Sequence record: OR352954 | Length of the DNA stretch: 64,000 nucleotides | Origin: Escherichia phage AV124 | Direction: 5' to 3' (one strand) | Shown: piece by piece, positions 31,033 through 61,144 of the stretch | Numbering within the stretch: position 1 is the first letter of the stretch | Layout: each line of letters opens with the position of its first letter | Program-made: the position numbers and the translations under genes | The notes under the pieces: model-generated | What the model saw: only the letters and a program-made list of their open reading frames with translations | Database searches by the model: none | What the model was told of the DNA's origin: nothing

Positions 31033-31035
31033 TGT

Positions 31036-35559: not shown

Positions 35560-35640
35560 GTGTACGCTCCTGCGTCTTTTAAAGTGTGGATATCCATGCG
35601 TGTTTGAAAAGGCCACATCCTTGTGGCACACGAAACGCTA

Positions 35641-36114
35641 TTAGATGATACCTGCAAGGCCAGCCAGACCGAAGCCTGTAGCGTACAGAGTATCTGGGCT
35701 TAACCATGCGTCCAGGATTCCGATTTCCCAGTCCATTTGGCCTACTTCAGTACCGTAGGTCAGGTCAGGCTGTTTCTGAATCCAACCAACTGTGCTCAGA
35801 CCCATACCCTGGGAGCCTTCAAGAAGGACAGGGAAGAAAATCAGACCAGTGATGGAAGCTTGTTTCTGCCAGTTAGCCAAGTACCCGTTCCATACCGAAG
35901 TGTTCTGTAGAGAGACAGTCAGGACACCAGATTGGTTACGAGACAGCGCTGCTGACAGTTCACCATCAACCCCCATGTGGGGGATGATGTTATCTTCGTT
36001 GCGAGCAACGACGATCTTGGTATCCGCTGCGAACCCAGTGACGCGCTGAGTCATCATATAGAGACGCGCTTTCTGTGGGTCGTAGGCATACGGGGTTAAA
36101 ATTCTTGTATCCAT
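35641..36114 (-). CDS. tail tube protein (157 aa)
   Basis: Size and position directly downstream of sheath gene; RBS AGGAGTG. Confidence 0.55.
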   Translation of the reverse strand: MDTRILTPYAYDPQKARLYMMTQRVTGFAADTKIVVARNEDNIIPHMGVDGELSAALSRNQSGVLTVSLQNTSVWNGYLANWQKQASITGLIFFPVLLEGSQGMGLSTVGWIQKQPDLTYGTEVGQMDWEIGILDAWLSPDTLYATGFGLAGLAGII

Positions 36115-36117
36115 TTA

Positions 36118-45499: not shown

Positions 45500-47047
45500 T
45501 TAGTTATCCAAGTTAGAGACAGAATTATCTCTTACTTTAGACGTCCCATTACCAGAAGTACCTTGCTTCATTCCATCACCGGAGCGACTGGTATCTTCCC
45601 CAAGGATCTTGAGTAGTTCCTCTTGAGATGTGTTTTCAGGAATCTCTTCATCAAACCCACCAACCTCAAGGATCTTATTGATAACTGTAGGTGTCTTCGG
45701 CAGATAACCAACAGCACCAATTCTCTGAACAAATTTGGAGAAGCTTTCCATATCAACTTCCTGGATAGCTCCAGGCTTAAGTCTCGGCATGTCTTCATCA
45801 GACAAACGGATATTATTAAGAGCGAGTAGTTGAGGAATCAAGTTCTTGTTGAATGATTCACAAATAATATCGATATCTCGTTGAACAAAATGCCCGTGGA
45901 TTGTTTGTTTTGATTCCGACAGGTTGTAAGACCCTTGACCATCATTCCCTAAGTTGATGAACCCCGCACCAAATCTGTCCAAGATCGCCTTCTTACGCTC
46001 TTGTATTAGATCCTTGGTACTATACTGTTTACCAACCCCATCGATTCCCTTAAGGGTCATCTTATACTGCTCACCGCCCTTATCATTCATATCTGAAGGT
46101 AAGATGAAGTAAGATTGTTCACCTGAGTGTGCGTTTGCAGCGTCAGCCATCAGACCACGAACCATATCTGCTTCAGGTGATCTCGGGTCCATAGACGCCT
46201 TATTCAGAATTGAAGAAGGGATCTTTAATTCAATGATACCACCGAGGTCCTTAGATGCCCCTATAACTTCAAGGTTTTCGATCAGGATTTTTTCACGGAA
46301 TGCACGGTAACAACCAACAAGAGGTGATACACCTGTAGGGTTTGATTCTGTCCCACCAAGAGACATTATCATCAACTTATTCACAGGGATGAATTTCTCA
46401 TCCGCACTTCCTGACAGATTTGTGACGAGACTCATAGCCCCAGCAATCTGGTTCATCCCGTTCTGAAAATTAGCAAAAGCCAGTGCGCTTTGATAAACAC
46501 CCGTAATTGTCCTTCCATCATCGCTGAAGACAAAAGGTTTTGTACGAGAGAGGCTTGACTGAGGACGGAAAGCAATTTTGTCGATCGTCATATAGCCTGC
46601 GTACTTAGATGGCGCGGATTCTGTTCTGTAGACCTTTTCGAATACAGAGAAACCATACTCGTTAAATGTCGCAGCACTTCTCGCCACATCGCGAAGCGTC
46701 TGTTGGTTAGCAAGATTCTTCAGAGCATACTCGACGAAATCTGCCGCTTTTTTAGACTCTTCACTATCTCGGTTGAAAAGAATTTTAAAATCATTGAAAG
46801 CCTTGGTGACAAAAACATATTTCGTATCCAGCGCTGTGGCAACAGTATGGTCTTGCTTCATGGAATCCACTGTTGCGAGGAACATAGGCCAGCGGAGTTC
46901 TTCAACCTTCATAATCTCAGATTCAGCACGAATCTGAGACAATGCTCCACTACCAAGTTCTCCAGTACGGACACGACTCACAGCAAGGTTTTCATTCCCT
47001 GCTTTTGCCACCGCATTCTTTCTTTTTCTGTTTCTGCGATTTGACAC
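45500..47047 (-). CDS. portal protein (515 aa), GTG start
   Basis: Size and position directly downstream of large terminase; GTG start preceded by RBS GAGGGGA. Confidence 0.55.
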   Translation of the reverse strand: MSNRRNRKRKNAVAKAGNENLAVSRVRTGELGSGALSQIRAESEIMKVEELRWPMFLATVDSMKQDHTVATALDTKYVFVTKAFNDFKILFNRDSEESKKAADFVEYALKNLANQQTLRDVARSAATFNEYGFSVFEKVYRTESAPSKYAGYMTIDKIAFRPQSSLSRTKPFVFSDDGRTITGVYQSALAFANFQNGMNQIAGAMSLVTNLSGSADEKFIPVNKLMIMSLGGTESNPTGVSPLVGCYRAFREKILIENLEVIGASKDLGGIIELKIPSSILNKASMDPRSPEADMVRGLMADAANAHSGEQSYFILPSDMNDKGGEQYKMTLKGIDGVGKQYSTKDLIQERKKAILDRFGAGFINLGNDGQGSYNLSESKQTIHGHFVQRDIDIICESFNKNLIPQLLALNNIRLSDEDMPRLKPGAIQEVDMESFSKFVQRIGAVGYLPKTPTVINKILEVGGFDEEIPENTSQEELLKILGEDTSRSGDGMKQGTSGNGTSKVRDNSVSNLDN

Positions 47048-47062: not shown

Positions 47063-48562
47063 TTATAATCGTGTATACATAGTCGGAGCAACAATCCTTG
47101 GGATTACGACAGGTCTGATGATCTCCGTTTTCTCCAGGAAGTTAATACCTGAAGAGATGGCGTCAACCCAATCGTCCTTACGGGACACGGTGCTTCGCTC
47201 GCCATTAAATTTCTCAAGCTCATTCATGAGGGCTTCATATGTCTTTGCATCAAAACTACTACGTACAATACGGACAAAGCCTTGCTGTGCAAGCTGGGCA
47301 AATGGTGCAAAACGAGTAAGTTTCGACTTGTTGCCTGGCGTAGGGTCTTTCTCAACCACATAACCATCCGCGAGCAATGCTCTTGAGCTGGTGAGGAATT
47401 CGCTTATACCAGCTTGGCCTGGGTCAACTGAGAAAATAATCGTTACATCATCGCCATCATGTTCTGCTTGTTTTTTGATAATTGCATCACGTTCGCCAGC
47501 CTTCTTACAGAAGCGGCCCTGCGTCCCGGTAGAATAAGGACCATCATCAACAAAATCTGGGTGATAGTCACCAGAAAGATAATAGAATCCCTCGGTATCT
47601 TTACTTACCTTGACCGATGCAGTAAAGTCAGGGAACTTGTTGCCTGTTGAGCGTTCAGTTCCCGCCTTGTCGTATGGTCTTACAGAAGTGCAGCCTAAAG
47701 GTAGCGTCGCGACTTCTTTCAAGAAAGACCTTTGGAAATAGTTTGCACCTTCTGGGCGAACCTTCCAGTTACCATACAACAGCTGTGCTTTTTCAACTTC
47801 AGGAAGACCTTCAAGAAATGCAAGATAATCTGGGTTGTTTTCCAGCATTGGCGGATTATCGAAAATTGTTGCGCTAATAAACGAGAAGGAGAGCGGCTTA
47901 GGCTTCTTGTGGATATCTTCACCATCCCAGTATCGTTCAATCAATTCTTCTGCGCTATCACCCCAAATGAAATCACCATCACGACGGATGAACCAACGGA
48001 TAACACCATCACGTTCTGGGATAGGATAACCATCCTCGTCGAGATACCAATCTATCAACTCTTTAATCTTATGATCAGGATCAGGGTTACAAGAGATGAC
48101 CATACGGCTTGGGTATTTAGATTCGGAACGTAAACGAGACATCAGATATTCGATCTGCGTCCATTCAAACTGTGTTCCTTCGTCAAACCCTACAAAAGTA
48201 TACTGAAGGCCCTGATGAGAAAGCTTGTCTTTCTCATATTCCATGTGCGACCATTTAACTTTTGCACCCGAAGGGAAGATAGCCTTCAGGTCTTTTTCTC
48301 GGAAGCGCGGCTTCCACTCAGGCGACAATTCACTATAGATACCACGAGCTGTTTCATACAAACCACCCGCACCGACAATCTGCGGTGTAAGTCTTCGGAA
48401 CATGATACAGTTTGAGCGAGGATCATCTATTAAGGCTAAGGGCATAAGTTGCAACAGGTAAGATTTACCTGATCCCGCAGCGCCCCCAATGATCAGGATT
48501 TGCGCCTTGTTTTCCAGGATCATTTTCTGCTTGGGGCTGGCGGGTCCAAAAGTGGTACTCAA
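47063..48562 (-). CDS. terminase large subunit, TTG start
   Basis: Walker A P-loop IIGGAAGSGKS near the N-terminus; TTG start with RBS GGAGGT. Confidence 0.8.
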   Translation of the reverse strand: MSTTFGPASPKQKMILENKAQILIIGGAAGSGKSYLLQLMPLALIDDPRSNCIMFRRLTPQIVGAGGLYETARGIYSELSPEWKPRFREKDLKAIFPSGAKVKWSHMEYEKDKLSHQGLQYTFVGFDEGTQFEWTQIEYLMSRLRSESKYPSRMVISCNPDPDHKIKELIDWYLDEDGYPIPERDGVIRWFIRRDGDFIWGDSAEELIERYWDGEDIHKKPKPLSFSFISATIFDNPPMLENNPDYLAFLEGLPEVEKAQLLYGNWKVRPEGANYFQRSFLKEVATLPLGCTSVRPYDKAGTERSTGNKFPDFTASVKVSKDTEGFYYLSGDYHPDFVDDGPYSTGTQGRFCKKAGERDAIIKKQAEHDGDDVTIIFSVDPGQAGISEFLTSSRALLADGYVVEKDPTPGNKSKLTRFAPFAQLAQQGFVRIVRSSFDAKTYEALMNELEKFNGERSTVSRKDDWVDAISSGINFLEKTEIIRPVVIPRIVAPTMYTRL

Positions 48563-48651
48563 AGGACCTCCATTATTATATGCTATAGGAGGATTTTACC
48601 ACGAAAGATCATAAAAATAAAGCCCTTATCACGAAATAAGGGCCTTGTCAA

Positions 48652-48942
48652 TCACTTTTGAGGTGTAAATATGTTACGAATGTATGCCTGAAGGATAAGC
48701 AACTTGCTACGTGTATCTGCTGCTTCAAGATTATTTTTCTTAACAATAGCACTGTTTTTAGCGTTATCAGCACCATAGGGAAGTGGTGTTGGGTCAGAAG
48801 GGGGAATCATCGCGTGAGCAGGCGGCTTAGAAAGCACCTCAGAGGGATTAAACTTCTCAACCACTGGAACTACCTTCTGTGGAGACTCGCATCCAACAAG
48901 CATGATTACAGAGAGGAATATGGCAAGCAAACTCTTTCTCAT
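48652..48942 (-). CDS. o-spanin (outer-membrane lipoprotein, Rz1-like)
   Basis: Signal peptide with lipobox LVGC; Pro-rich mature part; overlaps the i-spanin stop by 4 nt. Confidence 0.65.
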   Translation of the reverse strand: MRKSLLAIFLSVIMLVGCESPQKVVPVVEKFNPSEVLSKPPAHAMIPPSDPTPLPYGADNAKNSAIVKKNNLEAADTRSKLLILQAYIRNIFTPQK

Positions 48943-49343
48943 TTAACCCCCAAGCTTTCATTATAGATATCAACAAAGTCGTTATCCAGCCCAAACTTTT
49001 TACCCGCTTCAGATTTGTTATATGCCTGTTGTTTTTCATCGAGTCGGGATCTAAGTAAATCATTCTTAGCCTTCTCTTCTGCAAGCTGGCGACTCAGTTC
49101 ATCAGAGAAGTCTTGCTGCCCATTTTTGAAATCTTGATTTGCATATTTGTTGTTTCTCATTTGCAGAACCCATTTGTTATCCGTATCATTAACCCCACGG
49201 CTATAGGCCTGCTGTATTTGGTCATCATACCACCACTTAACTTCAAAAGCGCCCCACAGGAGCGCCAGAGAAAGGACAGCAATGATAACCAGTTTGGTGT
49301 GTCCCTTTATAAAGGTCCAAACCACACTGATAAAATTTATCAT
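48939..49343 (-). CDS. i-spanin (Rz-like)
   Basis: N-terminal TM helix followed by charged coiled-coil periplasmic domain; ATGA overlap with upstream gene. Confidence 0.6.
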   Translation of the reverse strand: MINFISVVWTFIKGHTKLVIIAVLSLALLWGAFEVKWWYDDQIQQAYSRGVNDTDNKWVLQMRNNKYANQDFKNGQQDFSDELSRQLAEEKAKNDLLRSRLDEKQQAYNKSEAGKKFGLDNDFVDIYNESLGVK

Positions 49344-50797
49344 GAGATATCCCCATCACAATCTAATAATTCAACAATAGTCACCTTATTCCGAGGAGCC
49401 TTATCTTCTCGGTTTACAGACACTCGCCCATCTCCCTCGTACTCAAGGATAAGCGGGTCTTCCACGATAACCTTAAACAGACAAGCACCAGGTTCTATAC
49501 CCCCAACGTGCCAACTCCCCTGCACCCCATTCTTGCATAGCAGCTTATACCTCTCTTGTGCAGCATCAAGATCAAAATAAATACTGATCTTATCTAGCAT
49601 CTCTGGATTGTCGATGCTATTGCTATTAAGGCCGAATACGTGTTTTTCGGTATGCGCTTGCATCATGTAAAAATGCACAGCACTAGATACAGCCCAGAAC
49701 TCCTTAAAGTACAGGCGATCGGTGTTTTTACGCAGGCGTTGGAAAACATTGAAGATATCTTTAGCTTCAAGATTGAAACGCCGTTGCCCTTTACGCTTGT
49801 CGGTGATAGTGGCAATCGTACTGATAGTAATATCCCCTGCGTTATCCAGTTTATCAAATAATCGTTCAAATGAAAACGGTTCTTTTGTATCGAAGAGTTC
49901 TTCAACGTTTGTCCCGTACATACCACTAAGATGCTTTTTGGCATCCTCCCAGCTTTCCATTTTGAGACCTGCAACGGCAACACCCAACTTCATTGTTTCT
50001 CGACGGGAGATTGTATACCCACGGGCCTCGTACTTTGACGCTCGGAGCATACTGATGATCGGGTAGTCTGTCGCTGGATTAAGAACCAACACCTTCTGTG
50101 CAGCATGTTTAAGAAAACGACTGTCAAACACCCATGTTTCATCACCAAATGAGAAGGCACCCATATTGATGGTATAGTCAAACTTATCAAAGATCTGCCC
50201 AGCGTTCTCAAATACCGAGAATGCAATGCATTGCATCACCGGATTAGAACCCTCTGAAAACATAATGCTTTTGTCTGTCATGCCGATATTACGAACATAT
50301 GAGACTTTCTCCTTTCTACTTTCGAGCAGTTTTTCAATACCATCCCAAGTCGATTCAGAGATATCAGACAGATCAAAAGGGCAGTCACTGGCAAACTTAT
50401 CTTCCATCTCCACGATCTCTTGCTTAGACACTTTCTGAGAAAGAACCTTGAATCTTGGCGCACGGGATTCCCATACCTCTTTCCCATTGTCTAAAATGAA
50501 GAAATCACGATAAACACGTTTCTCTTCATTGTATCCCTTCGTTTTAGGCGACAGGTCATGTTCACCTTTTCGTAGGTCTATGTCGATCATATAAGTAATA
50601 AAGATCTCTAGGTCATCCCATGAACGGAAGTACAGGTCGAGATCATTAACTTCCCGGTTGGTAAAGAGAGCCGTGATAGCGCCTCCTGCGATTATAACAT
50701 CGAGGCTGCGAAGGATATGGTAAATATCCTCAGAGAAAAAACTTTTTAGTAAACGGTATTCTCGAAGATGTTCACTCTTCTCGTAAGTGTGGATCAT
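49340..50797 (-). CDS. Pol-beta-superfamily nucleotidyltransferase, CCA-adding-enzyme-like head motif (485 aa)
   Basis: Start at ATG 50797 (MIHTYEK) with RBS AAAGGAGACC; motif VIIAGGAITALFTNREVNDLDLYF (GGA, 11 residues, DxD) has the same spacing as the tRNA nucleotidyltransferase / poly(A) polymerase head domain but lacks the RD of GGxVRD. Confidence 0.55.
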   Translation of the reverse strand: MIHTYEKSEHLREYRLLKSFFSEDIYHILRSLDVIIAGGAITALFTNREVNDLDLYFRSWDDLEIFITYMIDIDLRKGEHDLSPKTKGYNEEKRVYRDFFILDNGKEVWESRAPRFKVLSQKVSKQEIVEMEDKFASDCPFDLSDISESTWDGIEKLLESRKEKVSYVRNIGMTDKSIMFSEGSNPVMQCIAFSVFENAGQIFDKFDYTINMGAFSFGDETWVFDSRFLKHAAQKVLVLNPATDYPIISMLRASKYEARGYTISRRETMKLGVAVAGLKMESWEDAKKHLSGMYGTNVEELFDTKEPFSFERLFDKLDNAGDITISTIATITDKRKGQRRFNLEAKDIFNVFQRLRKNTDRLYFKEFWAVSSAVHFYMMQAHTEKHVFGLNSNSIDNPEMLDKISIYFDLDAAQERYKLLCKNGVQGSWHVGGIEPGACLFKVIVEDPLILEYEGDGRVSVNREDKAPRNKVTIVELLDCDGDIS

Positions 50798-50829: not shown

Positions 50830-50864
50830 GTACCAGAAAAAGAAAAGCCCCGCAAGAGCGGGGC
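50830..50864 (-). terminator. rho-independent terminator between tRNA array and nucleotidyltransferase gene
   Basis: On the minus strand: hairpin GCCCCGC-TCTT-GCGGGGC followed by TTTTCTTTTTCT. Confidence 0.55.
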
Positions 50865-50908: not shown

Positions 50909-50984
50909 TGGTTGCGAGCAGCGGAATCGAACCCCTCTGAACAAGCTTATGAGACTCGTGAATTCACCAGAATTCTAGCTCGCA
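50909..50984 (-). tRNA. tRNA-Met/Ile2 (anticodon CAT)
   Basis: Cloverleaf read by eye: acceptor TGCGAGC/GCTCGCA, D-arm GAAT-TCTGGTGA-ATTC, anticodon stem CGAGT/GCTTG with wobble pairs, loop CTCATAA, T-loop TTCGATT; CCA encoded. Confidence 0.7.
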
Positions 50985-50990
50985 ATTGTT

Positions 50991-51067
50991 TGGCGGGACG
51001 GGGTGGATTCGAACCACCGACACCATGATCTTCAATCAAGTGCTCTACCAAACTGAGCTACCGACCC
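50991..51067 (-). tRNA. tRNA-Phe (GAA)
   Basis: D-arm GCTC-AGTTTGGTA-GAGC, anticodon loop TTGAAGA, T-arm GGTGG-TTCGAAT-CCACC; CCA encoded. Confidence 0.75.
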
Positions 51068-51073
51068 GATGTG

Positions 51074-51158
51074 TGGTGGGCAAGGAGAGACTCGAACTCT
51101 CACGTCATAGGACGCCAGAACCTAAATCTGGTGCGTCTACCAATTTCGCCACTTGCCC
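51074..51158 (-). tRNA. tRNA-Leu (TAG)
   Basis: Anticodon arm CCAGA-TTTAGGT-TCTGG, long variable arm, T-loop TTCGAGT; CCA encoded. Confidence 0.75.
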
Positions 51159-51403
51159 TAATCGATCCTTCGGGAGAATGCCACCCTCGGACAAATACCA
51201 TGATAAGCACTTATAGGCAATATACTCATCAATCCTCGCTCCGTTTTGATATCGTTACCGCCACAAGGACGCATTGCGAACCATCAATATCCGAAGACTC
51301 GCCTTATCGTTGTACACCGAGTCGGGCTTCCTCTTTATTAGTTTGCTCTGTTACGCCACACGTAAATCCTGCAAGCCAGAAGGTCTCTACAGGAGAGCAA
51401 ATA

Positions 51404-51476
51404 TGGTGTGGATGGAAGGACTCGAACCTACATCAAACGGCTTCGTAGACCGTTGCCTGTCCGTCAGGACACCCAC
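51404..51476 (-). tRNA. tRNA-Arg (ACG)
   Basis: Anticodon arm ACGGT-CTACGAA-GCCGT, T-loop TTCGAGT, acceptor GTGGGTG/CATCCAC; CCA encoded. Confidence 0.75.
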
Positions 51477-51482
51477 ATAATT

Positions 51483-51559
51483 TGGTCTCCATAGAGTGAC
51501 TCGAACACTCAACCTCCTGGTCCCAAACCAGGCGCTCTACACTATTGAGCTACACGGAG
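51483..51559 (-). tRNA. tRNA-Pro (TGG)
   Basis: D-arm GCTC-AATAGTGTA-GAGC, anticodon arm CCTGG-TTTGGGA-CCAGG, T-arm GAGTG-TTCGAGT-CACTC; CCA encoded. Confidence 0.8.
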
Positions 51560-51657
51560 AGAAGTGCAGAATTTTAATTATCCCAGACACTGCAACTGGT
51601 ATTGCTGGCTAGCTAATAAGTTCTCCAAGCAAAGTTTTAATTTGCAAGGAGGATGTT

Positions 51658-51734
51658 TGGCGGGACCGAAGGGAATCGAACCCTCATTTTCCGCATCGAC
51701 AGTGCGGCACCATTACCTTGTCAGCCACGGCCCC
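51658..51734 (-). tRNA. tRNA-Asp (GTC)
   Basis: Anticodon arm CCGCA-CTGTCGA-TGCGG, T-loop TTCGATT, acceptor GGGGCCG/CGGTCCC; CCA encoded. Confidence 0.8.
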
Positions 51735-51741
51735 ATAAATT

Positions 51742-51826
51742 TGGCGACGAGCGTAGGAATTGAACCTACATAGAGCTAATGCTCGCGGATTAACAGTCCG
51801 CCGTTCTACCAATGAACCAGCTCGTC
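51742..51826 (-). tRNA. tRNA-Asn (GTT) with enlarged variable region
   Basis: D-arm GTTC-ATTGGTA-GAAC and anticodon arm GCGGA-CTGTTAA-TCCGC; variable region is 15 nt with a GAGC-ATTA-GCTC mini-hairpin; CCA encoded. Confidence 0.65.
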
Positions 51827-51886
51827 ATTTAAATACTTTATCAGTGAAAACAACCTTTTGCAAGAATTATTTTAACTGATTTAATT

Positions 51887-51962
51887 TGGCGGGAAGGGAA
51901 GGATTTTAACCCATCGTCTCTTCGCTTAAAAAGCGAATGCCTGACCGCTCGGCTACCTACCC
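51887..51962 (-). tRNA. tRNA-Lys (TTT)
   Basis: Anticodon arm TTCGC-TTTTTAA-GCGAA, T-loop TTAAAAT; acceptor has one mismatch; CCA encoded. Confidence 0.65.
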
Positions 51963-51970
51963 ATATTGTT

Positions 51971-52059
51971 TGGAGGAGAGCAACAGAATCGAACTGTCAC
52001 CGTATCTCTACGGTGGGACCGGGTTCAAACCGGAGCCTGCACCATGCAGCCTGCTCTCC
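51971..52059 (-). tRNA. tRNA-Ser (TGA)
   Basis: Anticodon arm CCGG-TTTGAAC-CCGG, long variable arm, T-loop TTCGATT; CCA encoded. Confidence 0.7.
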
Positions 52060-52064
52060 AAAAT

Positions 52065-52150
52065 TGGCGGAAGATGCAAGGGTTGAACTTGCACACCCTT
52101 TCGGATGGCGGTTTAGCAAACCGCTGTGGCTACCATTTCACCAATCTTCC
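52065..52150 (-). tRNA. tRNA-Ser (GCT)
   Basis: Anticodon arm GCGGT-TTGCTAA-ACCGC, long variable arm, T-arm GCAAG-TTCAACC-CTTGC; CCA encoded. Confidence 0.75.
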
Positions 52151-52296
52151 AATTGTTCTTTAATTTCTTTACGAAGATCTGCTTTTTCTTTCGCACGAGT
52201 AATAGGGACTGATTGAATCTCTTCTGCAACACCACAGTTACTACCGTGAAGTCTACAGCGTCCAAACACTTTCTTGCAACGCAAAAGTTTCTGCAT
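52138..52296 (-). CDS. small Cys-containing protein inside the tRNA array (52 aa)
   Basis: Start at internal ATG 52296 (MQKLLRCKKVFGRCRLHGSNCGV...) with RBS GGAGG at 4-nt spacing; three Cys in 13 residues; the 3-prime end of the frame runs into the adjacent tRNA-Ser. Confidence 0.35.
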   Translation of the reverse strand: MQKLLRCKKVFGRCRLHGSNCGVAEEIQSVPITRAKEKADLRKEIKEQLEDW

Positions 52297-52311
52297 AAAT
52301 CCTCCATAAAG

Positions 52312-52401
52312 TGGCGGAGAAGGAGAGAATTGAACTCTCAAGCCGTTTTACCAGTCAGCACCTTTCCAAGGTGTTTTCGTCACCTATCGATTTGCTTCTC
52401 C
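52312..52401 (-). tRNA. atypical type-II tRNA, possibly tRNA-Ser (GGA)
   Basis: Acceptor GGAGAAG/CTTCTCC and T-arm GAGAG-TTCAATT-CTCTC are clear; candidate anticodon arm ACACC-TTGGAAA-GGTGC; D-arm irregular; 90 nt; CCA encoded. Confidence 0.45.
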
Positions 52402-52405
52402 ATAT

Positions 52406-52482
52406 TGGGGTGGCTAGTGGGACTCGAACCCACATAGGACTGCCTCACAAGCAGTGTCATTATCCAGTTATGATATAGCCAC
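52406..52482 (-). tRNA. tRNA-His (GTG)
   Basis: Anticodon arm ACTGC-TTGTGAG-GCAGT, T-arm GTGGG-TTCGAGT-CCCAC; CCA encoded. Confidence 0.7.
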
Positions 52483-52554
52483 ATCAAAAGGCACTCCCAG
52501 CTTTCGGGTGAATTTCAAGAGCGGCTGCGCAACCACTTGAAGTACCTTTTGATA

Positions 52555-52630
52555 TGGCAGGAAGATCAGGACTTGAACCTGAACTACGGATTTCAAAGAC
52601 CCGTGTGCTAACCAATTACACCATCTTCCT
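52555..52630 (-). tRNA. tRNA-Gln (TTG)
   Basis: Anticodon arm CGGGT-CTTTGAA-ATCCG, T-loop TTCAAGT, D-arm GTGT-AATTGGTTAG-CACA; CCA encoded. Confidence 0.75.
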
Positions 52631-52785
52631 ATAATCGGTGAGGGCGCCTGAAACCGAGCCAGGCTAAGTATTGGACTGCAATCCTCAACTTATTTTGTTG
52701 CCGCCATGCTTACTTATGACCGACAAGAGTTCCCGTTGCAGCGGTAGATCATAGTCATTTTCAACATCCGGTCGCCCCCATTATT

Positions 52786-52859
52786 TGGAGCGTCTAGAGG
52801 GAATCGAACCCTACTCTGCGAGGCTTGGAAGGCCTGCGACACACCTCGTGCTTAGACGC
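52786..52859 (-). tRNA. tRNA-Trp (CCA)
   Basis: Anticodon arm AGGCC-TTCCAAG-GGCCT, T-loop TTCGATT; CCA encoded. Confidence 0.7.
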
Positions 52860-52866
52860 TTTAAAT

Positions 52867-52941
52867 TGGTGGGAGTATCTGGGATCGAACCAGAGACCTC
52901 TCGATTATCGGTCGAGCGTTCTACCGCTGAACTATACTCCC
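52867..52941 (-). tRNA. tRNA-Ile (GAT)
   Basis: D-arm GTTC-AGCGGTA-GAAC, anticodon arm CTCGA-CCGATAA-TCGAG, T-arm TCTGG-TTCGATC-CCAGA; CCA encoded. Confidence 0.8.
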
Positions 52942-53074
52942 ATTAATTGGTGCGCCCCTTTATAAAAATGTCTTCAAGCGGAGTCTTTATTGAAACAATA
53001 AATTTACTCACTCACCTAATCTTATTTTTACTCAGATGGACGTCTTTAGCGGAGCGTCCTCCACCTTCTTCGTT

Positions 53075-53161
53075 TGGTACGCCGTGATAGAGTCGAACTA
53101 CCCGAGCCTTTTGAGCAACAGATTTACAGTCTGTCCCGCTACCCCTACGGTCTAACGGCGC
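53075..53161 (-). tRNA. tRNA-Tyr (GTA)
   Basis: Anticodon arm ACAGA-CTGTAAA-TCTGT, long variable arm, T-loop TTCGACT; CCA encoded. Confidence 0.7.
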
Positions 53162-53163
53162 AT

Positions 53164-53514
53164 TTAGCCTTGTTTGAACTGAACAATATCTGTTGTGAAT
53201 GGCTTACTCATAGGAGTAGATTTCTTATCATCAACATTAGTTGTTTCAGCTTCTTCATTCTCTTCATCGAAGTAATCAGAAAGCATTTGTTCACCTTTCT
53301 CAATTACAAATCGAGCAATATTTTCCCTGATGTTGTCCTTTGTTGTGGCGCTTGTCATAAGGTCTTTTAGCACTTTATGAGCATCAGGAATCATAGCAAT
53401 CATATTGGTCTTAAGGTCAAGGATATTCTTCTCAAGCTGAATAGCATTAGACTCTTCTTTAAGGGGTCTACCTTTTCCTCTACGACGCTTTGTAAGTTGT
53501 TGTTTTACTGCCAT
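53164..53514 (-). CDS. hypothetical acidic protein inside the tRNA array (116 aa)
   Basis: ORF with ATG start; Lys/Glu-rich. Confidence 0.5.
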   Translation of the reverse strand: MAVKQQLTKRRRGKGRPLKEESNAIQLEKNILDLKTNMIAMIPDAHKVLKDLMTSATTKDNIRENIARFVIEKGEQMLSDYFDEENEEAETTNVDDKKSTPMSKPFTTDIVQFKQG

Positions 53515-53599
53515 AATAACCCCACTTATTAATATTATCAGATTTAAATTTATCTGTCAAGGGTCATTTTATCATTTTTTATAAAAATATTCAACAACT

Positions 53600-53674
53600 T
53601 GGAGCACGGTAGGTGAATCGAACACCTGACATTTCTTTTGCAGAGAAAGCTGTTGCCACTCCAGCAACCGTGCT
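53600..53674 (-). tRNA. tRNA-Cys (GCA)
   Basis: Anticodon arm TTTCT-CTGCAAA-AGAAA, T-arm AGGTG-TTCGATT-CACCT; CCA encoded. Confidence 0.75.
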
Positions 53675-53789
53675 TTCGGGGGACCCGATTATTTCAATTC
53701 GCTTCCACACATTCGGGTCAAGACGTGTCCTATAGTCTTTCGACGCTTCCACAGCTCGGAGTAAACCCGTCCCGGCTGTCCTGTGAATT

Positions 53790-53871
53790 TGGCGAAGGCG
53801 GCAGGATTCGAACCCGCATACTCCAATTACTCGATTAACGACGGGTTAGAAGCCCGTTGAGATACGCCCTC
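53790..53871 (-). tRNA. atypical tRNA-like gene (anticodon-like loop TCT, no recognisable D-arm)
   Basis: Acceptor GAGGGCG/CGCCTTC and T-arm GCGGG-TTCGAAT-CCTGC are clear; only one further hairpin ACGGG-CTTCTAA-CCCGT, followed by a 23-nt unpaired region; CCA encoded. Confidence 0.4.
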
Positions 53872-53877
53872 TTAAAC

Positions 53878-53966
53878 TGGTGCGGGATGAGGGATTCGAA
53901 CCCTCAAGGCCTAGAGGCCTACGAAGTCTTAAGCCTCGTGTGTACTGCCAATACCACCAATCCCGC
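53878..53966 (-). tRNA. tRNA-Leu (TAA)
   Basis: Anticodon arm CGAGG-CTTAAGA-CTTCG, long variable arm, T-arm GAGGG-TTCGAAT-CCCTC; CCA encoded. Confidence 0.75.
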
Positions 53967-54148
53967 AGAAATCTATTTTGTGAAGTCCCGATGTCCTGAC
54001 AACCGCCGTTGTCTCTCCGAAGCGCCTCTACTTGCGAAGAAGAGCCTACGCCATCCCTTTCATCAACTTGATATCAAAGCCGACACAGAGATCACACCCC
54101 ACTAGATGCAGGAGATTTTAAGTGTTTCAGAACCTCGCAGAATAGATT

Positions 54149-54257
54149 TGGAGCAGGGTGGTGGAATCTAACCACCTATGTATTTAGCCATGCTGTTAGT
54201 TCTGGCATATTTTTCAGGTCTGGATGGACCTCGCGGTTGACAAACCGCCTACCCTGC
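54149..54257 (-). tRNA. oversized tRNA-like gene (109 nt) with internal insertion
   Basis: Acceptor GCAGGGT/ACCCTGC, D-arm GCGG-TTTGTCAA-CCGC, T-arm GGTGG-TTAGATT-CCACC; stem AGGTC/GACCT closes a 6-nt loop; about 37 extra nt before the T-arm; CCA encoded. Confidence 0.35.
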
Positions 54258-54259
54258 AT

Positions 54260-54334
54260 TGGCTTCTCGAACAGGAATCGAACCTGTACCGTCCCTATCG
54301 TGGGACCGCTCTAACCAAAGTAAGCTATCGAGAA
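54260..54334 (-). tRNA. tRNA-like gene with 6-nt anticodon-position loop
   Basis: Acceptor TTCTCGA/TCGAGAA, D-arm GCTT-ACTTTGGTTA-GAGC, T-arm ACAGG-TTCGATT-CCTGT; stem GTCCC/GGGAC closes loop ACGATA; CCA encoded. Confidence 0.5.
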
Positions 54335-54340
54335 ATTGTT

Positions 54341-54416
54341 TGGTGCTCGCAGTAGGACTTGAACCCACGACCTTCTCCTTACAAGGGAGTTGCTCTACCA
54401 ACTGAGCTATACGAGC
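54341..54416 (-). tRNA. tRNA-Thr (TGT)
   Basis: D-arm GCTC-AGTTGGTA-GAGC, anticodon loop CTTGTAA, T-arm GTGGG-TTCAAGT-CCTAC; CCA encoded. Confidence 0.75.
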
Positions 54417-54817
54417 AAGAAATGCTGTTTCCGATTAACAGCCTGGAGGAGTCAGTTAGCCATATCTTGTGAGCTAAGATCCTATATCCAGGATTTAAGT
54501 AATCAAAGAAATTTTAGCTTTATGGTTTAGAAGTTTCAAGTTTAAACATTAAGCTTTGAACGATAATCTTTGAATGCTGAATGTTGAAGTCTTTCGAATT
54601 CGCGATTCGACAATTTCGATCAAGCCGCATCATTGTGCGGTCTGACGGAAAGATATGTTTAAGTATCATCCTATACGATTATGTTCGGAGCAGTTTAACC
54701 TCCGGCCCCGGTAGAGGCAAGATGTTTCTGACTTCGCTAACCAAAAACAGCATTTAAAAACTTTACCAGCTATCCACAGGAATTACAAGATGTTAATCAA
54801 GAATTCCTGCAAATATT

Positions 54818-55465
54818 TTAGATTGATCCTTCAATCTCTACTTCAGTCCGTGCATTTGACTCGGAAAGAACAAAGTCAACGTTAGACTTAAAGTCTTCAA
54901 TCTCTGCTTCCAGAGAACGAATGCGATCTGCCAGGCCCAGTGGATCGACAATGGAAGGAGTTCCCATGCTACGAACTGGCGCTTCTACTACAGCCAACTG
55001 TGCAGCGTCTGGCGCTTTATCACGTTGGACATATGGAGCACGAGCTGCTTCAAGCTTCGCTTCGAATTCCTGTGTATCACGGTTCAGGCGAACCTGAGCA
55101 TGATTATACTGAGACTTCAGTTTGCCAAGCAGAAGCTCTTTGAAAACGATGGTGCGTTTACGCTCAATCGCCTGAGCTACGGTCATAGACTCGCCAGCGA
55201 TCTCAACTTTTGTTACAGCGTTTGACTGAACAACTTTCGCCTTCAGGTCGTCGCGAACAGCCAGAAGATCCTGAACACCCTGGAAGTCTGCCTGAGCAGA
55301 TTTCTCGAAGTCCTCAACGCTCTGGATAGAGCCTGGGATCTGACGGTTTGCGTCAGTGCCTTTCGCGATGTGAATCGTGTTCAGCGCTTCGATACGCTTC
55401 TGAATCTTTTCCTCAACCTTGGTCAGGGTAGCCAGAGCGCGGGTTACAGACATCTTAGTAGACAT
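54818..55465 (-). CDS. coiled-coil protein (215 aa)
   Basis: Ala/Glu/Lys/Arg-rich heptad-like sequence. Confidence 0.5.
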   Translation of the reverse strand: MSTKMSVTRALATLTKVEEKIQKRIEALNTIHIAKGTDANRQIPGSIQSVEDFEKSAQADFQGVQDLLAVRDDLKAKVVQSNAVTKVEIAGESMTVAQAIERKRTIVFKELLLGKLKSQYNHAQVRLNRDTQEFEAKLEAARAPYVQRDKAPDAAQLAVVEAPVRSMGTPSIVDPLGLADRIRSLEAEIEDFKSNVDFVLSESNARTEVEIEGSI

Positions 55466-55539
55466 AGAATTCTCCTCTCATGAAATTTAAAATTTAAGTT
55501 ACTTCAAATATTTGCCGACATCCGTGTCGGCACTACGCA

Positions 55540-56151
55540 TTAGTTTTTGCCAGTATTAACAACTACGCCCTGGCGGTTAGCATCAGCTTTTGCGATTTCC
55601 AGACGGGTTTCGCGTTCAGCCTTCAGATCACCACGCGCTGCTTCAAGCTGTTCGGTCAGCATTGCAATGCGGTCATCCTTAGCCTTGCTATTAGCAGTAA
55701 GTTCTGCAATTGCAACCTTGTGAGCAGATTCCAGATTTGCCTTAACCGCATTCAGTTCGATTGCAGCGCTACGTTTAACGTCGGCAACTGCGCTTTCTAC
55801 AGCTTCAGCATTGTTCTGCTGAGAGATCGCCAGCTCTGCACGAAGGTCTTCAACAACACCCGGTTCTACAGCTACAAGGCCGCGAGATTTCAGGATAGAG
55901 TTCAGAACGGAATCTTCGTTTTCCAGAACTTTGATCTTCAGCTTGGATTTTTCTTCAGCCAGTTTTTCGTTGAACTGAACTTCAATTTGTCCCAGTTCCT
56001 GCTGCTTAAACTGAATTTCCTGACTGATCTTTTCAGACCCTTCTGCCAGAGATTGCAGTTCAGCGACTACTTTAGTCAGACCAGTAGCGGCAGTGGTTAC
56101 TGCTTTAGTGGCACGTTCAGTTACGGAAATTACAGTTTTAGAATCAGTCAT
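55540..56151 (-). CDS. coiled-coil protein (203 aa)
   Basis: Ala/Glu/Lys-rich heptad-like sequence. Confidence 0.5.
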   Translation of the reverse strand: MTDSKTVISVTERATKAVTTAATGLTKVVAELQSLAEGSEKISQEIQFKQQELGQIEVQFNEKLAEEKSKLKIKVLENEDSVLNSILKSRGLVAVEPGVVEDLRAELAISQQNNAEAVESAVADVKRSAAIELNAVKANLESAHKVAIAELTANSKAKDDRIAMLTEQLEAARGDLKAERETRLEIAKADANRQGVVVNTGKN

Positions 56152-56189
56152 TAAGTTATCCTTTGCGTTAAATTAGGTTTTAAATACTA

Positions 56190-56330
56190 CACTTACAGAT
56201 TGTGTTTGTCAAGCGAATCTTTGATTATTTCTTCGGTGGTAGGGTTGTTTTCAAACCATGACCAATAATACCAAAGAACAAGCAGGAAAGAGATCACTGA
56301 CATGATGATGAAGATAACACCGACACTCAT
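56190..56330 (-). CDS. small membrane peptide (46 aa)
   Basis: Below the track cutoff; translated by eye (MSVGVIFIIMSVISFLLVLWYYWSWF...); ATGA overlap with upstream gene. Confidence 0.4.
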
Positions 56331-56515
56331 CGTACAACGTCCTTAATGGAGTCACAAACTTCACCAACGACGTCTGCGGTAGGTGATACGACAATCTCAT
56401 CAGCGGCGTCAAAAACTTCTGCGGCTACATCTACAAAAGGTTCTGCAACAGTTGCAGTGACAACAACAGCAGTACCAACAATATCGCCAGCCATACGTAA
56501 TAATGTCCCTAACAT
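56327..56515 (-). CDS. small acidic protein (62 aa)
   Basis: Start at internal ATG (MLGTLLR) with RBS AAGGAGAA. Confidence 0.45.
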   Translation of the reverse strand: MLGTLLRMAGDIVGTAVVVTATVAEPFVDVAAEVFDAADEIVVSPTADVVGEVCDSIKDVVR

Positions 56516-56642
56516 TTTGTTCTCCTTTTGGTTCCGATTTGAAACGAGAGCACTTTCGTCCATTTAAGCTATCGCCCTGTGCCACTACGCGAGCCGGTCC
56601 AGCAAGAACGGGAGTCGAACCCGTATCTCTCTCATTTCAAAT

Positions 56643-56717
56643 TTGGTGGGGCATGAAGGATTCGAACCTTAGACAAACCGATTAAGAGTCTGCTACTCTA
56701 CCACTGAGTTAATACCC
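56643..56717 (-). tRNA. tRNA-Lys (CTT), anticodon stem imperfect
   Basis: Acceptor GGGGTAT/ATGCCCC, D-arm ACTC-AGTGGTA-GAGT, T-loop TTCGAAT, anticodon loop CTCTTAA with one stem mismatch; CCA encoded. Confidence 0.6.
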
Positions 56718-56782
56718 CGAAATAAGATCCGTGTTTTTAAAGACGTTTCACGGAATCGTCATTGTTCCCCATGCCGGAGGAA

Positions 56783-57094
56783 TTATTTTTTCTTCTTACC
56801 ATTTGGAGCTACGGTTTCAATAACCTTAGCTTCCTTCACTTTACCAGCACGTTCACGTTTTGTCTTACCTGTGCGAACACGGTAAGATGCAGAGATAATC
56901 TGACCACCCTCAATGCGGGTTTCTGACTTGTATTCACCCTTACGGCGATCAAATACCGAAACAGTCTTCTCTACACCACCAAGACGTACATCATGCGGAG
57001 CAGAATGCGTCTGAGTAGACTTTGACTCAAACTGGAAAGGCTGTTTGATAGCGTCAATAGCAGATACTTTCTTAGTAGAATTTTTCTTAGTCAT
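56783..57094 (-). CDS. basic hypothetical protein (103 aa)
   Basis: ORF with Lys/Arg-rich termini. Confidence 0.5.
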   Translation of the reverse strand: MTKKNSTKKVSAIDAIKQPFQFESKSTQTHSAPHDVRLGGVEKTVSVFDRRKGEYKSETRIEGGQIISASYRVRTGKTKRERAGKVKEAKVIETVAPNGKKKK

Positions 57095-57186
57095 AATTTT
57101 CTCCTTTGCATTTTATTTGGGAATTTCTCCCGTTTATGTTCATGAGGATATTAACTCAATCAATTATCCTCGTCAACATTTTTTAA

Positions 57187-57264
57187 TTGGTGACCCCCGG
57201 AGGATTCGAACCTACCTACCTCTCGATTATGAGTCGATTGCTCATACCTTATGAGCTTGAGGGC
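57187..57264 (-). tRNA. tRNA-Met/Ile2 (CAT)
   Basis: Anticodon loop CTCATAA, T-loop TTCGAAT, acceptor GGCCCTC/GGGGGTC with wobble pairs; CCA encoded. Confidence 0.65.
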
Positions 57265-57267
57265 CTT

Positions 57268-57340
57268 ATCGTTCAGAGTGGACTTGAACCACTGACCTTA
57301 TCCGTATGAAGAACATGCTCTACCAACTAAGCTACTGAAC
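57268..57340 (-). tRNA. tRNA-Met/Ile2 (CAT), no encoded CCA
   Basis: Acceptor CGTTCAG/CTGAACG, D-arm GCTT-AGTTGGTA-GAGC, anticodon arm TGTTC-TTCATAC-GGATA, T-arm AGTGG-TTCAAGT-CCACT; 3-prime end lacks CCA. Confidence 0.65.
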
Positions 57341-57365
57341 GGTTGTACTGTTGATGTGGTAGATA

Positions 57366-58605: not shown

Positions 58606-60282
58606 TTACAGTTGAGCGGCTGCGCGTTCACGAATCGTTGTCAGGTCTTCATCGACAATCAATTTACCGTTGTAGAACACACGACGCAGTTCATTATCTT
58701 CAGACTGTACTTCTTCCAGTTGGCAATTGTCAATCAGTTCTAACTGACCGAACATGTTGCGAACAACTTTGAGGAAGCCTTTCGCAGATTTCTTACTGAG
58801 GTCGGTCTTAGGCTCTTTGACAACCATGATCTGCTGACCATCAATCACAGCACCAGTTGCCTTCACAGCCATGCCCAGTGAATCGCGGGTTGTATACTGA
58901 GTGGTGAAAGAACCGACGCCGTAAACAATGTTGCTGGATGCGAAGCCTTTTTCTTTCAGACGTTCAAAGATGTCTTTTGCACGAGCAACAGTGATTGAGT
59001 CACCGTAGATCAGACCAACGTGGGTGTCGAGGACCTTGTAACCTTTGGAGTTAACTTCACCACCAAAGATCTCCCACAGGCACTGAATTGCACCAATTGC
59101 CTCATGACGAGTAATCTCTTTATCGTCATCATCTGTCTGTGACAGAAGAACATAACGGTCGGTGTCTTTGAAGTATGCAACTTCTGTCTTCAGTGCGAAG
59201 GAACCTTTGTTATAGAAACCGTCTTCTGTTTCGAATTCTTCAATTCGATAACCAGCAATGATATGTTCAGGAATGCCGGAGTCAGGACGGAAAACAACAC
59301 GACCATCACGTGCCATGATTTCCTGTTTCAGGATCGCTGCTGCTTTGGTGATAATAGCCCAGAAATCATAGCTGTCTGCTACGTAGGAAACAAAACCTTT
59401 CGGGAAAATTTCCGTGATATAGCGTTTCAGGAACTCAACTTCAGCCAGAAAACGTTTCTGGTCGAGGCTCATAAACTCTTGTGTTACAGTATTCTCTTCG
59501 ATTTCTTTTACAATAAATCCGATGTTCGTGGTTGCAACAGAGTGTTCAGATGCAGGAATAGAACCAGCAACGAACTTGCCTTTCATGTTGTAATAACGAC
59601 GAGCATACAGAATCGCTGGGATAGTGTCTGTACCCATAGAGTTGATCAGTTGACCGAATTCGCTCTGTGCTGCGTCGTGAGTACCAGCTTCACCGCGATA
59701 TGCGAAGCAGTGGTTCTGGAATGCAACATGGTCGTTGTTATCACAGGTCGCAGCAGCCCATTTTTCGGACAGCTTGCGATACTGCCAGAACGTCGTTGCA
59801 GTTGTGATAGTTTTCCAAGTTTCTGCGGAGATCACACTTTCCAAGAAGTTAGGCAACCAGTAAAAATCCGGGTGCGTATTCTGGATTGTAAACATTGGGA
59901 TCTGAACCGGAGAAAGCGTTCCTTCTGGAAGAGCACGGATTTCCAGAGGAAGATAACCGAGATCATGAAGAGCCTCAAAGCCCCAGGTTTCTACCATGCC
60001 AATGCCGATGCTGGAGTCGCAAACCTCACGATAATCAGCAACCGCTACTTCTTTCGGGAGGTTGAAGAAGTTATTGTTGAACATGTCGATAAGGAACCAC
60101 TTAATAAATCCCTGAAGGCCAGCAAACATGACACGCTGGTCGTTATCAGCGAAGTGAATGAAGTGCTTCGCGTTACGAGGGGTCATGTTATCCTGAACAA
60201 TTTCAGAACGTTTATCATACATGGAGATGTGTGAAGGTTTGTAAAAGTCAGCGAACAGGATAGGACTTTCTTGATTAAGCAT
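58606..60282 (-). CDS. nadV: nicotinamide phosphoribosyltransferase (Nampt)
   Basis: Start at ATG 60282 with RBS AAGGAGAAA; N-terminal LFADFYKPSH resembles the Nampt signature (LLATDSYKVTH in the human enzyme); size about 558 aa; adjacent to prs. Confidence 0.75.
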   Translation of the reverse strand: MLNQESPILFADFYKPSHISMYDKRSEIVQDNMTPRNAKHFIHFADNDQRVMFAGLQGFIKWFLIDMFNNNFFNLPKEVAVADYREVCDSSIGIGMVETWGFEALHDLGYLPLEIRALPEGTLSPVQIPMFTIQNTHPDFYWLPNFLESVISAETWKTITTATTFWQYRKLSEKWAAATCDNNDHVAFQNHCFAYRGEAGTHDAAQSEFGQLINSMGTDTIPAILYARRYYNMKGKFVAGSIPASEHSVATTNIGFIVKEIEENTVTQEFMSLDQKRFLAEVEFLKRYITEIFPKGFVSYVADSYDFWAIITKAAAILKQEIMARDGRVVFRPDSGIPEHIIAGYRIEEFETEDGFYNKGSFALKTEVAYFKDTDRYVLLSQTDDDDKEITRHEAIGAIQCLWEIFGGEVNSKGYKVLDTHVGLIYGDSITVARAKDIFERLKEKGFASSNIVYGVGSFTTQYTTRDSLGMAVKATGAVIDGQQIMVVKEPKTDLSKKSAKGFLKVVRNMFGQLELIDNCQLEEVQSEDNELRRVFYNGKLIVDEDLTTIRERAAAQL

Positions 60283-60343
60283 GTTTTGTTTCTCCTTTGT
60301 TTGTTTAATAGGGCGATTGTACGCCCACTTATTCATTTGTCAA

Positions 60344-61144
60344 TTAAAAGTTTTCGGTCCAGTCGTGGTACGCATAGATTTCATCAACGCCGCCTTCGTA
60401 GATAACTTCTTTGCCGAAGGAAAAGATACCGTGTGTTACGTAAAGAATAACACGTTTTGCACCTTTTGCCTTCAATGCTTGTGCCAGGGCAATGAATGTG
60501 CGACCACCATCGCAGATATCATCGACAATAACACACTCGCGACCTTCAACATCACCGAAAACAGCAGTCCCGGTAATTTCATTTGTCTTCAGATCGCGCA
60601 CTTTTCCAGCTTCCACCAGAGGGAGGCGGAGACGATCGGAAACTTTCTGAGCTTTTTTACGTGCTCCGGCGTCAGGTGCCACGATAACAACATCTTTTCC
60701 AACCAGGCCTTCATGGAATTTCGCAATAAGAGCATCCTGACCACGAATTTTAACGTTGTTAAGTAGTGCTGCGGAGACATCGCTGTGCGGATCATCGACA
60801 ATTATCTTATCAAACCCAAGAGAGTTGACGATATTTGCGAAAACTTTGATGGATAACGCTTCACCAGGTTGCATTACGCGGTCCTGACGTGCATATGGAA
60901 TATATGGCAAGTGCAAAGTAAATTGTGCAGTATGATGGAGACCTTCAAGGCGAGAACATGCATCCACCAACATGGCAAGTGCCATAACATCAGTAGAATT
61001 TTTAATTTTCGCAGTGATGTCTACGAAACCAATACCACCTTTTGGGGTATGCGTCATGTCAATTTTAACCTGTTCTTCACCACCTTTGAACGTAAAGTGA
61101 TCAACAGGAACTACCAGTTTGTTCAGACGAAGTTCTAAACTCAT
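60344..61144 (-). CDS. prs: ribose-phosphate pyrophosphokinase (PRPP synthetase)
   Basis: Type I phosphoribosyltransferase PRPP-binding motif VIVDDICDGGRT plus upstream VIVAPDAGA. Confidence 0.8.
   Translation of the reverse strand: MSLELRLNKLVVPVDHFTFKGGEEQVKIDMTHTPKGGIGFVDITAKIKNSTDVMALAMLVDACSRLEGLHHTAQFTLHLPYIPYARQDRVMQPGEALSIKVFANIVNSLGFDKIIVDDPHSDVSAALLNNVKIRGQDALIAKFHEGLVGKDVVIVAPDAGARKKAQKVSDRLRLPLVEAGKVRDLKTNEITGTAVFGDVEGRECVIVDDICDGGRTFIALAQALKAKGAKRVILYVTHGIFSFGKEVIYEGGVDEIYAYHDWTENF

Follow-up and report, generated by a model that had tools for sequence, protein, structure and literature searches.

A probable two-component spanin of the rV5/PVP-SE1 type, with probably scattered lysis genes, in Escherichia phage AV124

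Escherichia phage AV124 is represented here by a stretch of 64,000 nucleotides (nt) of its DNA (sequence record OR352954), the whole of which is referred to below as the window. On the minus strand of the window, between a tRNA array and the gene encoding the large terminase subunit (TerL), lie two adjacent genes whose products very probably make up a working two-component spanin of the type known from rV5 and PVP-SE1, in a Mydovirus with scattered lysis genes. The pair is composed of an i-spanin, predicted to be anchored in the inner membrane, and an o-spanin, a predicted outer-membrane lipoprotein. The results presented here concern the gene structure, membrane signals and family membership of the pair, its synteny, the negative searches of the window for further lysis genes and the positions of endolysin genes in relatives. 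A previous interpretation made from the letters of this DNA alone (the sequence-only reading) had recognized a spanin pair at this site and had remarked that no recognisable endolysin or holin gene was adjacent to it.

The spanin genes and their products

The two genes are as follows.

48939..49343, minus strand: i-spanin gene, 134 amino acids (aa), from the list of open reading frames (ORFs); PHROG 4297 'Rz-like spanin', E=2.3e-51
48652..48942, minus strand: o-spanin gene, 96 aa, from the ORF list; PHROG 1267 'Rz-like spanin', E=2.9e-24

Both ORFs occupy the positions given in the sequence-only reading, on the minus strand, and their PHROG scores are far above chance. The i-spanin gene precedes the o-spanin gene, and the stop codon of the first and the start codon of the second share the tetranucleotide ATGA. 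The o-spanin gene had been described as overlapping, and an overlap of 4 nt does exist, but the architectural class to which such pairs are assigned in the published spanin census is 'separated' (gap -4; PMC6139136 supplement).

One hydrophobic segment is present in the i-spanin, close to the N-terminus, at residues 14-37 or, more narrowly, about 17-37 (maximum Kyte-Doolittle value of 2.07), with none elsewhere in the protein, which contains no cysteine and no proline. It thus displays the lone N-terminal transmembrane domain required of an i-spanin, with the bulk of the protein predicted to be periplasmic. In a single-sequence AlphaFold2 model, helices extend over residues 4-116 and 121-130 (mean predicted local distance difference test score, pLDDT, of 78, moderate confidence), and the periplasmic domain is predicted to be mainly alpha-helical, another property expected of i-spanins. 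Homologues are present in 214 phage records across Vequintavirinae, and a search of PDB sequences with the i-spanin gave no match.

The N-terminus of the o-spanin is MRKSLLAIFLSVIMLVGC. The lipobox LVGC reported in the sequence-only reading is indeed present, with its cysteine at position 18, and L15, G17 and C18 are invariant in the four phages compared, the pattern L-x-G-C being retained in the o-spanin homologues of Mydo, PVP-SE1 and rV5. The o-spanin is the only lipobox protein among the approximately 95 ORFs called in the window. In the Lol pathway, an aspartate at position +2 after the lipidated cysteine decides against the sorting of lipoproteins to the outer membrane. The residue at this position is glutamate in the window, glutamine in PVP-SE1 and alanine in rV5; the o-spanin therefore lacks an aspartate at +2, and its sorting to the outer membrane is predicted. 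The protein is 11.5% proline.

In both proteins, the most highly conserved segments are C-terminal, and binding between the two proteins is expected at these parts. The i-spanin carries a DIYNES motif near its C-terminus, conserved in an alignment with Mydo, PVP-SE1 and rV5, and the C-terminal segment of the o-spanin, NNL..R.KL..LQ.Y.R..F, is conserved across the phages aligned. The pair belongs to curated spanin families, as indicated by PHROGs 4297 and 1267 and by alignments to the rV5 and PVP-SE1 members; the same pair is annotated as I-spanin and O-spanin in Proteus phage Mydo, and likewise in a BASEL rV5-like phage.

Endolysins and the search for a holin

The 4 kb around the spanin genes is 97.8% identical to Klebsiella phage vB_KpnM_BIS47 (BIS47) and 96-98% identical to VLCpiM5b (97.7%), KNP2, DP and Proteus phage Mydo, all of which are members of Mydovirus. 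By its sequence, the window is from a Mydovirus (Vequintavirinae), an rV5-like Klebsiella myophage.

The lysis genes of the window were sought by several methods. Pfam was applied to 77 further ORFs in two pooled scans, with a targeted scan in addition, PHROGs to 13 small membrane proteins of the window and NCBIfam to ten proteins. The tblastn queries were the two Mydovirus hydrolases described below, the endolysins E of T4 and R of lambda, and T7 lysozyme. No peptidoglycan-hydrolase or holin family was matched by the window ORFs in Pfam, and no holin or hydrolase family by the 13 small membrane proteins in PHROGs or by the ten proteins in NCBIfam; the best tblastn match of the five endolysins to the window had E=0.3. 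Between the tRNA array and TerL, no membrane-protein ORF was found other than the spanins. The neighbours of the pair are a 485-aa gene on one side and TerL on the other, as the sequence-only reading had maintained in stating that no endolysin or holin is adjacent, and the locus has neither the contiguous endolysin nor the contiguous holin of a lambda-like lysis cassette. The protein gp069 of rV5, encoded upstream of the rV5 spanins, was considered as a holin and rejected, as it has no hydrophobic segment.

The positions of the lysis genes were taken from VLCpiM5b (ON602729.1), of which the whole annotation was read, and the endolysin sites of AV124 itself are deduced from relatives. The VLCpiM5b spanins are located at 74,728-75,419 on the minus strand. 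About 37 kb from them, on the plus strand, is the gene for a GH19 endolysin of 184 aa, with a TTG start (112,016-112,570); it is unannotated in the record and was located by means of the published primer sequence for the endolysin of KPP-1. The gene is about 98-99% identical in all the Mydovirus genomes listed, and in BIS47 and Mydo it lies 38-40 kb from the spanins. The KPP-1 orthologue, as a purified protein, lysed Klebsiella variicola in vitro (PMC9862379). The GH19 endolysin has no export signal and therefore needs a holin. A second hydrolase, SleB-like (Pfam Hydrolase_2, E=1.8e-19), is encoded in VLCpiM5b at 15545..16235 on the plus strand, beside rIIA/rIIB and about 59 kb from the spanins. 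It is annotated as an 'endolysin' from an internal ATG (at about 15.7 kb), which cuts off the signal peptide; a TTG 49 codons farther upstream is probably the real start, and the ORF read from there has a typical signal peptide. An unannotated ORF for a 51-aa membrane protein is present between this gene and rIIA. Both hydrolase genes are on the strand opposite to the spanins. On the basis of shared genes, the GH19 gene of AV124 would lie about 21 kb past the right end of the window and the SleB-like gene about 13 kb past the left end.

The sequence-only reading had offered two explanations for the isolated pair, namely that the endolysin and holin genes lie outside the window or that the lysis genes are dispersed, and both are true in every close relative examined. 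The arrangement that would have contradicted the reading is a canonical endolysin/holin pair in the spanin operon, just beyond the window; the relatives have no such pair there, their endolysins being 37 and 59 kb away.

Two other candidates were rejected. A 'hydrolase' at 121 kb in VLCpiM5b, which follows a small membrane protein and could be taken for the second half of a holin-endolysin pair, has a match to PTH2 (peptidyl-tRNA hydrolase; E=0.008) that falls short of the Pfam cut-off and matches no cell-wall hydrolase family. The labels 'endolysin' and 'RIIA' over the matched region of OY978796.1 are an annotation-register error: the DNA at that place is 96% identical to the terminase/spanin region of the window, and the same record calls the GH19 gene 'tail spike protein'. 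Feature tables out of register with their sequences were observed in OY978796.1, OY978784.1, OY757067.1 and OY979426.1, and could mislead any reading of gene neighbourhoods.

The sequence-only reading had also pointed to the following cassette, which lies in the tail-fibre module, in connection with dispersed lysis functions.

14002..15075, minus strand: small membrane-protein cassette (104, 157 and 91 aa), after a tail-fibre assembly gene and before a tail-fibre gene

The 104-aa protein has a transmembrane helix at its N-terminus and a helical tail that is charged, the 157-aa protein about four hydrophobic segments, and the 91-aa protein, which is weakly hydrophobic, corresponds to PHROG 1322 'membrane protein' and has homologues in 375 phage records. 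The cassette is a set of genes for conserved small membrane proteins, and their putative role in lysis finds no holin-family match in Pfam, PHROGs or NCBIfam. By analogy with T4, in which holin gene t comes after tail-fibre genes 37 and 38, the holin could be one of these three proteins, encoded after the tail-fibre assembly gene. This suggestion, an addition to the spanin interpretation rather than a strict rival to it, is a rather unlikely one. It has in its favour that the 104-aa and the approximately 90-aa proteins are kept at the same place in PVP-SE1 and rV5, that an endolysin lacking an export signal calls for a holin, and that a holin is to be accounted for in the group as a whole: the published annotation of the rV5-like phage LL12 contains no positive identification of a holin (PMC6658697), and the search for one in KPP-1, a Mydovirus, was negative (PMC9862379). 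However, besides the lack of a family match, the curators of Mydo, who have a specialist interest in lysis, left these proteins as hypothetical, and elsewhere they are labelled 'membrane protein'; they could equally serve in tail-fibre assembly. The window contains at least ten further ORFs for small membrane proteins, such as 9949..10170 (two hydrophobic segments and a charged C-terminus), and other authors prefer small proteins encoded beside the SleB-like hydrolase (PMC7344957), where the 51-aa membrane ORF of VLCpiM5b is located. The identity of the holin of rV5-like phages matters for the therapeutic Klebsiella and E. coli phages of the group.

Neighbouring genes and intergenic signals

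The features around the spanin genes are listed below.

45500..47047: portal gene, next after the terminase gene (PHROG 113, E=1.4e-85)
47063..48562, minus strand: large terminase subunit gene, directly downstream of the spanin pair (PHROG 979, E=3.9e-212)
48563..48651, minus strand: conserved intergenic element of 89 nt, the spacer between the o-spanin and terminase genes
48619..48646, minus strand: terminator-like hairpin (pattern scan), beginning 6 nt after the o-spanin stop codon, with a 12-bp stem and a UCGU loop, followed by UUUAUUUUUAU
49340..50797, minus strand: 485-aa gene, with a weak nucleotidyltransferase-fold N-terminus (PHROG 16176, function not assigned, E=1.5e-268)
50847..50864, minus strand: second terminator-like hairpin (pattern scan), located between tRNA-Met and the 485-aa gene and made up of GCCCCGC/GCGGGGC plus a T-run

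The 485-aa gene and the two spanin genes form a three-gene unit flanked by the two terminator-like hairpins. The 485-aa gene starts with an ATG at position 50797, preceded by the ribosome-binding site AAGGAG, rather than at the beginning of the maximal ORF of 534 aa, and its stop codon overlaps the i-spanin start (ATGA), the two genes being translationally coupled. In the sequence-only reading, the gene upstream of the i-spanin was called nucleotidyltransferase-like. It does adjoin the i-spanin gene, but the label derives from a weak N-terminal match to PHROG 1614 (E=1.2e-6) and from a GG-x12-DLD motif read from the sequence near the N-terminus. Searches of Pfam, NCBIfam and PDB sequences with the protein were all empty, and it displays no lysis-related features. 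It is homologous to gp80 and gp79 of PVP-SE1, in which it is split into two genes. In rV5, the gene is absent upstream of the spanins and an unrelated, soluble 89-aa protein is encoded in its place; the 485-aa protein is therefore not a conserved partner of the spanins.

These observations bear on the possibility that the 485-aa protein is a novel endolysin or lysis factor, making the locus a cryptic lysis cassette. The overlap of its stop codon with the i-spanin start, the lack of any Pfam, NCBIfam or PDB match and the retention of its position in PVP-SE1 would be compatible with such a role, which is nevertheless most improbable: the protein has no signal peptide, neither the sequence-only reading nor the annotated relatives call it membranous, its sole similarity is to nucleotidyltransferase-fold proteins (PHROG 1614, with the GG-x12-DLD motif), its link to the spanins is not conserved in rV5, and the relatives already possess, elsewhere in the genome, a GH19 endolysin of demonstrated lytic activity.

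On the other side of the pair, the spacer between the o-spanin and terminase genes contains, in order, the sequence TTGACA, the hairpin and the U-run belonging to it, then a TGGTAAAAT box resembling an extended -10 element, and a CCTCC complementary to the GGAGG ribosome-binding site of the terminase gene. This element is conserved in Mydo-, Seuna-, Henuna- and Avunavirus. Across these four genera, the core of the spacer is 86% identical, versus 61% for the adjoining coding DNA at the 3' end of the o-spanin gene, and the TTG start and GGAGG ribosome-binding site of the terminase gene are also kept across genera. The RNA fold of the hairpin has a free energy (dG) of -17.4 kcal/mol and a z-score of -3.2; 96.6% of the cells in its pairing are paired, with one compensatory pair only, variation being too slight to decide on covariation. 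On these sequence features, the spacer is read as a putative terminator closing the spanin unit combined with start signals for the terminase gene. The whole element is absent from rV5.

The tRNA array upstream of the 485-aa gene (50909..57341, minus strand) comprises 21 genes according to ARAGORN, one of which has an unreadable anticodon (54260..54334). Rfam gave two extra tRNA-like matches outside the ARAGORN list (53793..53871 and 57191..57265), and its scan of the whole window returned tRNAs only.

Several other regions of the window were also noted. The tail-fibre/tail-spike genes at 20570..26701 (minus strand) are unlike those of all deposited Mydovirus genomes, the best coverage over 12001..37000 being 75%, and among the structural proteins of the window Pfam recognised domains of two kinds, sialate-acetylesterase (SASA) and GDSL esterase. 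The divergent tail fibres and esterase domains suggest a distinct capsule or receptor specificity. At 77..1129, a NUMOD4/HNH_3 homing-endonuclease ORF (494..1129) follows a 132-aa fragment of DNA polymerase; the polymerase of VLCpiM5b is annotated as two pieces, with no homing endonuclease at that spot. A set of genes for NAD+ salvage is distributed over 5024..8480 and 58606..61144 (a PnuC-like nicotinamide mononucleotide transporter, an AAA_28/cytidylyltransferase-like protein, a NAPRTase-family protein and a ribose-phosphate pyrophosphokinase), and identically annotated genes are found in VLCpiM5b and Mydo.

Proposed function and comparison with known spanins

The membrane topology, i-o complex, membrane fusion and late expression proposed for the pair are taken from the lambda and T4 paradigms. 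The N-terminal helix of the i-spanin would anchor the protein in the inner membrane, with the long helical domain reaching into the periplasm, and the o-spanin, once exported, would receive its lipid on Cys18 and, having glutamate in place of aspartate at +2, would be directed to the outer membrane. Binding between the C-terminal parts of both proteins would then create a bridge that passes through the peptidoglycan. When the infection draws to its close, a holin would let out the cytoplasmic GH19 endolysin, encoded about 37 kb away, which would destroy the peptidoglycan mesh; with the mesh gone, the bridges would be able to move, the inner and outer membranes would fuse and lysis would be complete. 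In the genome, the spanin genes would be the last of a short unit (485-aa gene, i-spanin, o-spanin and hairpin) that follows the tRNA array, where the block of genes for packaging and head morphogenesis begins.

Several points weigh against this interpretation. No functional test of any Vequintavirinae spanin, the window pair included, was found in the literature. No holin was recognised in the window by the family searches above, which leaves the proposed lysis pathway incomplete, and the endolysin genes of the phage are placed by comparison with its relatives. Support for the terminator-like hairpin behind the o-spanin gene comes from its conservation and folding energy rather than from covariation. 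Finally, the pair does not possess the periplasmic cysteine (at least one) that is common in, although not strictly defining of, two-component spanins.

The only cysteine of the o-spanin is Cys18, predicted to be lipidated, and the i-spanin has none, leaving the pair with no periplasmic cysteine at all. Periplasmic cysteines are present in 507 of 528 two-component spanins, the remaining 21 (about 4%) lacking them, and disulfide-linked dimers are required in the spanins of lambda and T4 (PMC6139136). The rV5 o-spanin has one periplasmic cysteine (in NNLSCSNDR), and the same site reads EAA in the window and in Mydo and NAA in PVP-SE1. Cysteine-less spanins of this kind are a handy system in which to ask whether spanins really depend on covalent dimers. 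The joint proposition that they act without disulfide-linked dimers and in concert with a holin of unrecognised type from the tail-fibre module is considered rather unlikely.

The family to which the pair belongs, and its position in the genome, are already known and catalogued. In the spanin census of Kongari et al. (2018), rv5, PVP-SE1, GAP31 and their relatives are entered as 'sep' with a gap of -4; the i-spanins fall into the families '4MG, Av-05, PVP-SE1, GAP31' and 'rv5, 2_JES-2013, FV3', the o-spanins into the family 'rv5 (7)', and a coiled coil is predicted for the i-spanins of PVP-SE1, rv5 and GAP31 (PMC6139136). The PVP-SE1 i-spanin, gp78, is annotated with one transmembrane domain by Octopus and TMHMM. 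A pair free of periplasmic cysteine is atypical of two-component spanins, and on this ground the two proteins might be imagined to be another duo of membrane protein and lipoprotein, for example one for superinfection exclusion or receptor blocking like T5 Llp or T4 Imm/Sp; however, this is very unlikely indeed, given the full spanin signature (a helical protein anchored at its N-terminus and, next to it, a lipoprotein rich in proline, the C-terminal segments being conserved), the strong matches to spanin PHROGs, the curation of the family as spanins by the group that defined spanins (PMC6139136), and the conservation of the pair in every genus of Vequintavirinae, with no other annotated spanin in the relatives examined (VLCpiM5b, rV5 and PVP-SE1).

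The closest known systems to the proposed AV124 spanin are gp068/gp067 of rV5 and gp78/gp77 of PVP-SE1, which are full-length homologues (50% and 30% identity for the i-spanin and 60% and 36% for the o-spanin) and share with it the ATGA junction ('separated, -4') and the place between the terminase gene and the tRNA array. The succession of tRNA array, i-spanin, o-spanin, TerL and portal is found in the window, rV5, PVP-SE1, Mydo, VLCpiM5b and a BASEL rV5-like phage, and the order tRNA, spanins, terminase and portal has been described in print for CB7, rV5 and PVP-SE1 (PMC7344957). The rV5 locus differs in the periplasmic cysteine of its o-spanin, in the overlap of the o-spanin stop codon with the terminase start, where the window has the 89-nt element, and in its upstream gene.

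More distant parallels are found outside Vequintavirinae. The T4 pair PseT.3/PseT.2 has the same separated architecture, with family members in S16 and PST also displaying a gap of -4, and the T4 spanin genes are likewise unlinked to the holin and endolysin genes (PMC6139136, Figure 8 legend). As in the window, the T4 i-spanin is devoid of cysteine, and the o-spanin exceeds lambda Rz1 in size and has a helix predicted at its C-terminus. However, the T4 o-spanin needs the periplasmic residues C87 and C98 (PMC6139136), whereas the window o-spanin has no such cysteines, and the genomic neighbours differ. None of the matches of the window pair to other spanin PHROGs was better than E=4e-6. Lambda Rz/Rz1 belongs to the same functional class, with the same presumed mechanism (an inner-membrane helical protein and an outer-membrane lipoprotein, joined in a complex that spans the periplasm and fuses the membranes once the peptidoglycan is degraded), but it has an embedded architecture within the S-R-Rz/Rz1 cassette, and the cross-family signal is limited to the weak match to other spanin PHROGs; in lambda, three intermolecular disulfides are formed, at least one of two being required (PMC6139136). 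The overlap of the Rz stop with the Rz1 start has been noted to be as in T4, with a similar arrangement in SP6 and VP4 (PMC7344957). In SP6 and Vibrio phage VP4, the spanin genes also lie beside the terminase gene and not within a lysis cassette (PMC7344957, citing Summer et al. 2007), although these are unrelated podoviruses with spanins of other families (PMC6139136), compared here by published description. The scattered, T4-like layout of the lysis genes is the published norm for Vequintavirinae and not a peculiarity of the window, and the practical weight of the comparison lies in correct annotation, the lysis genes of the group not being found beside the spanins, as the literature states.

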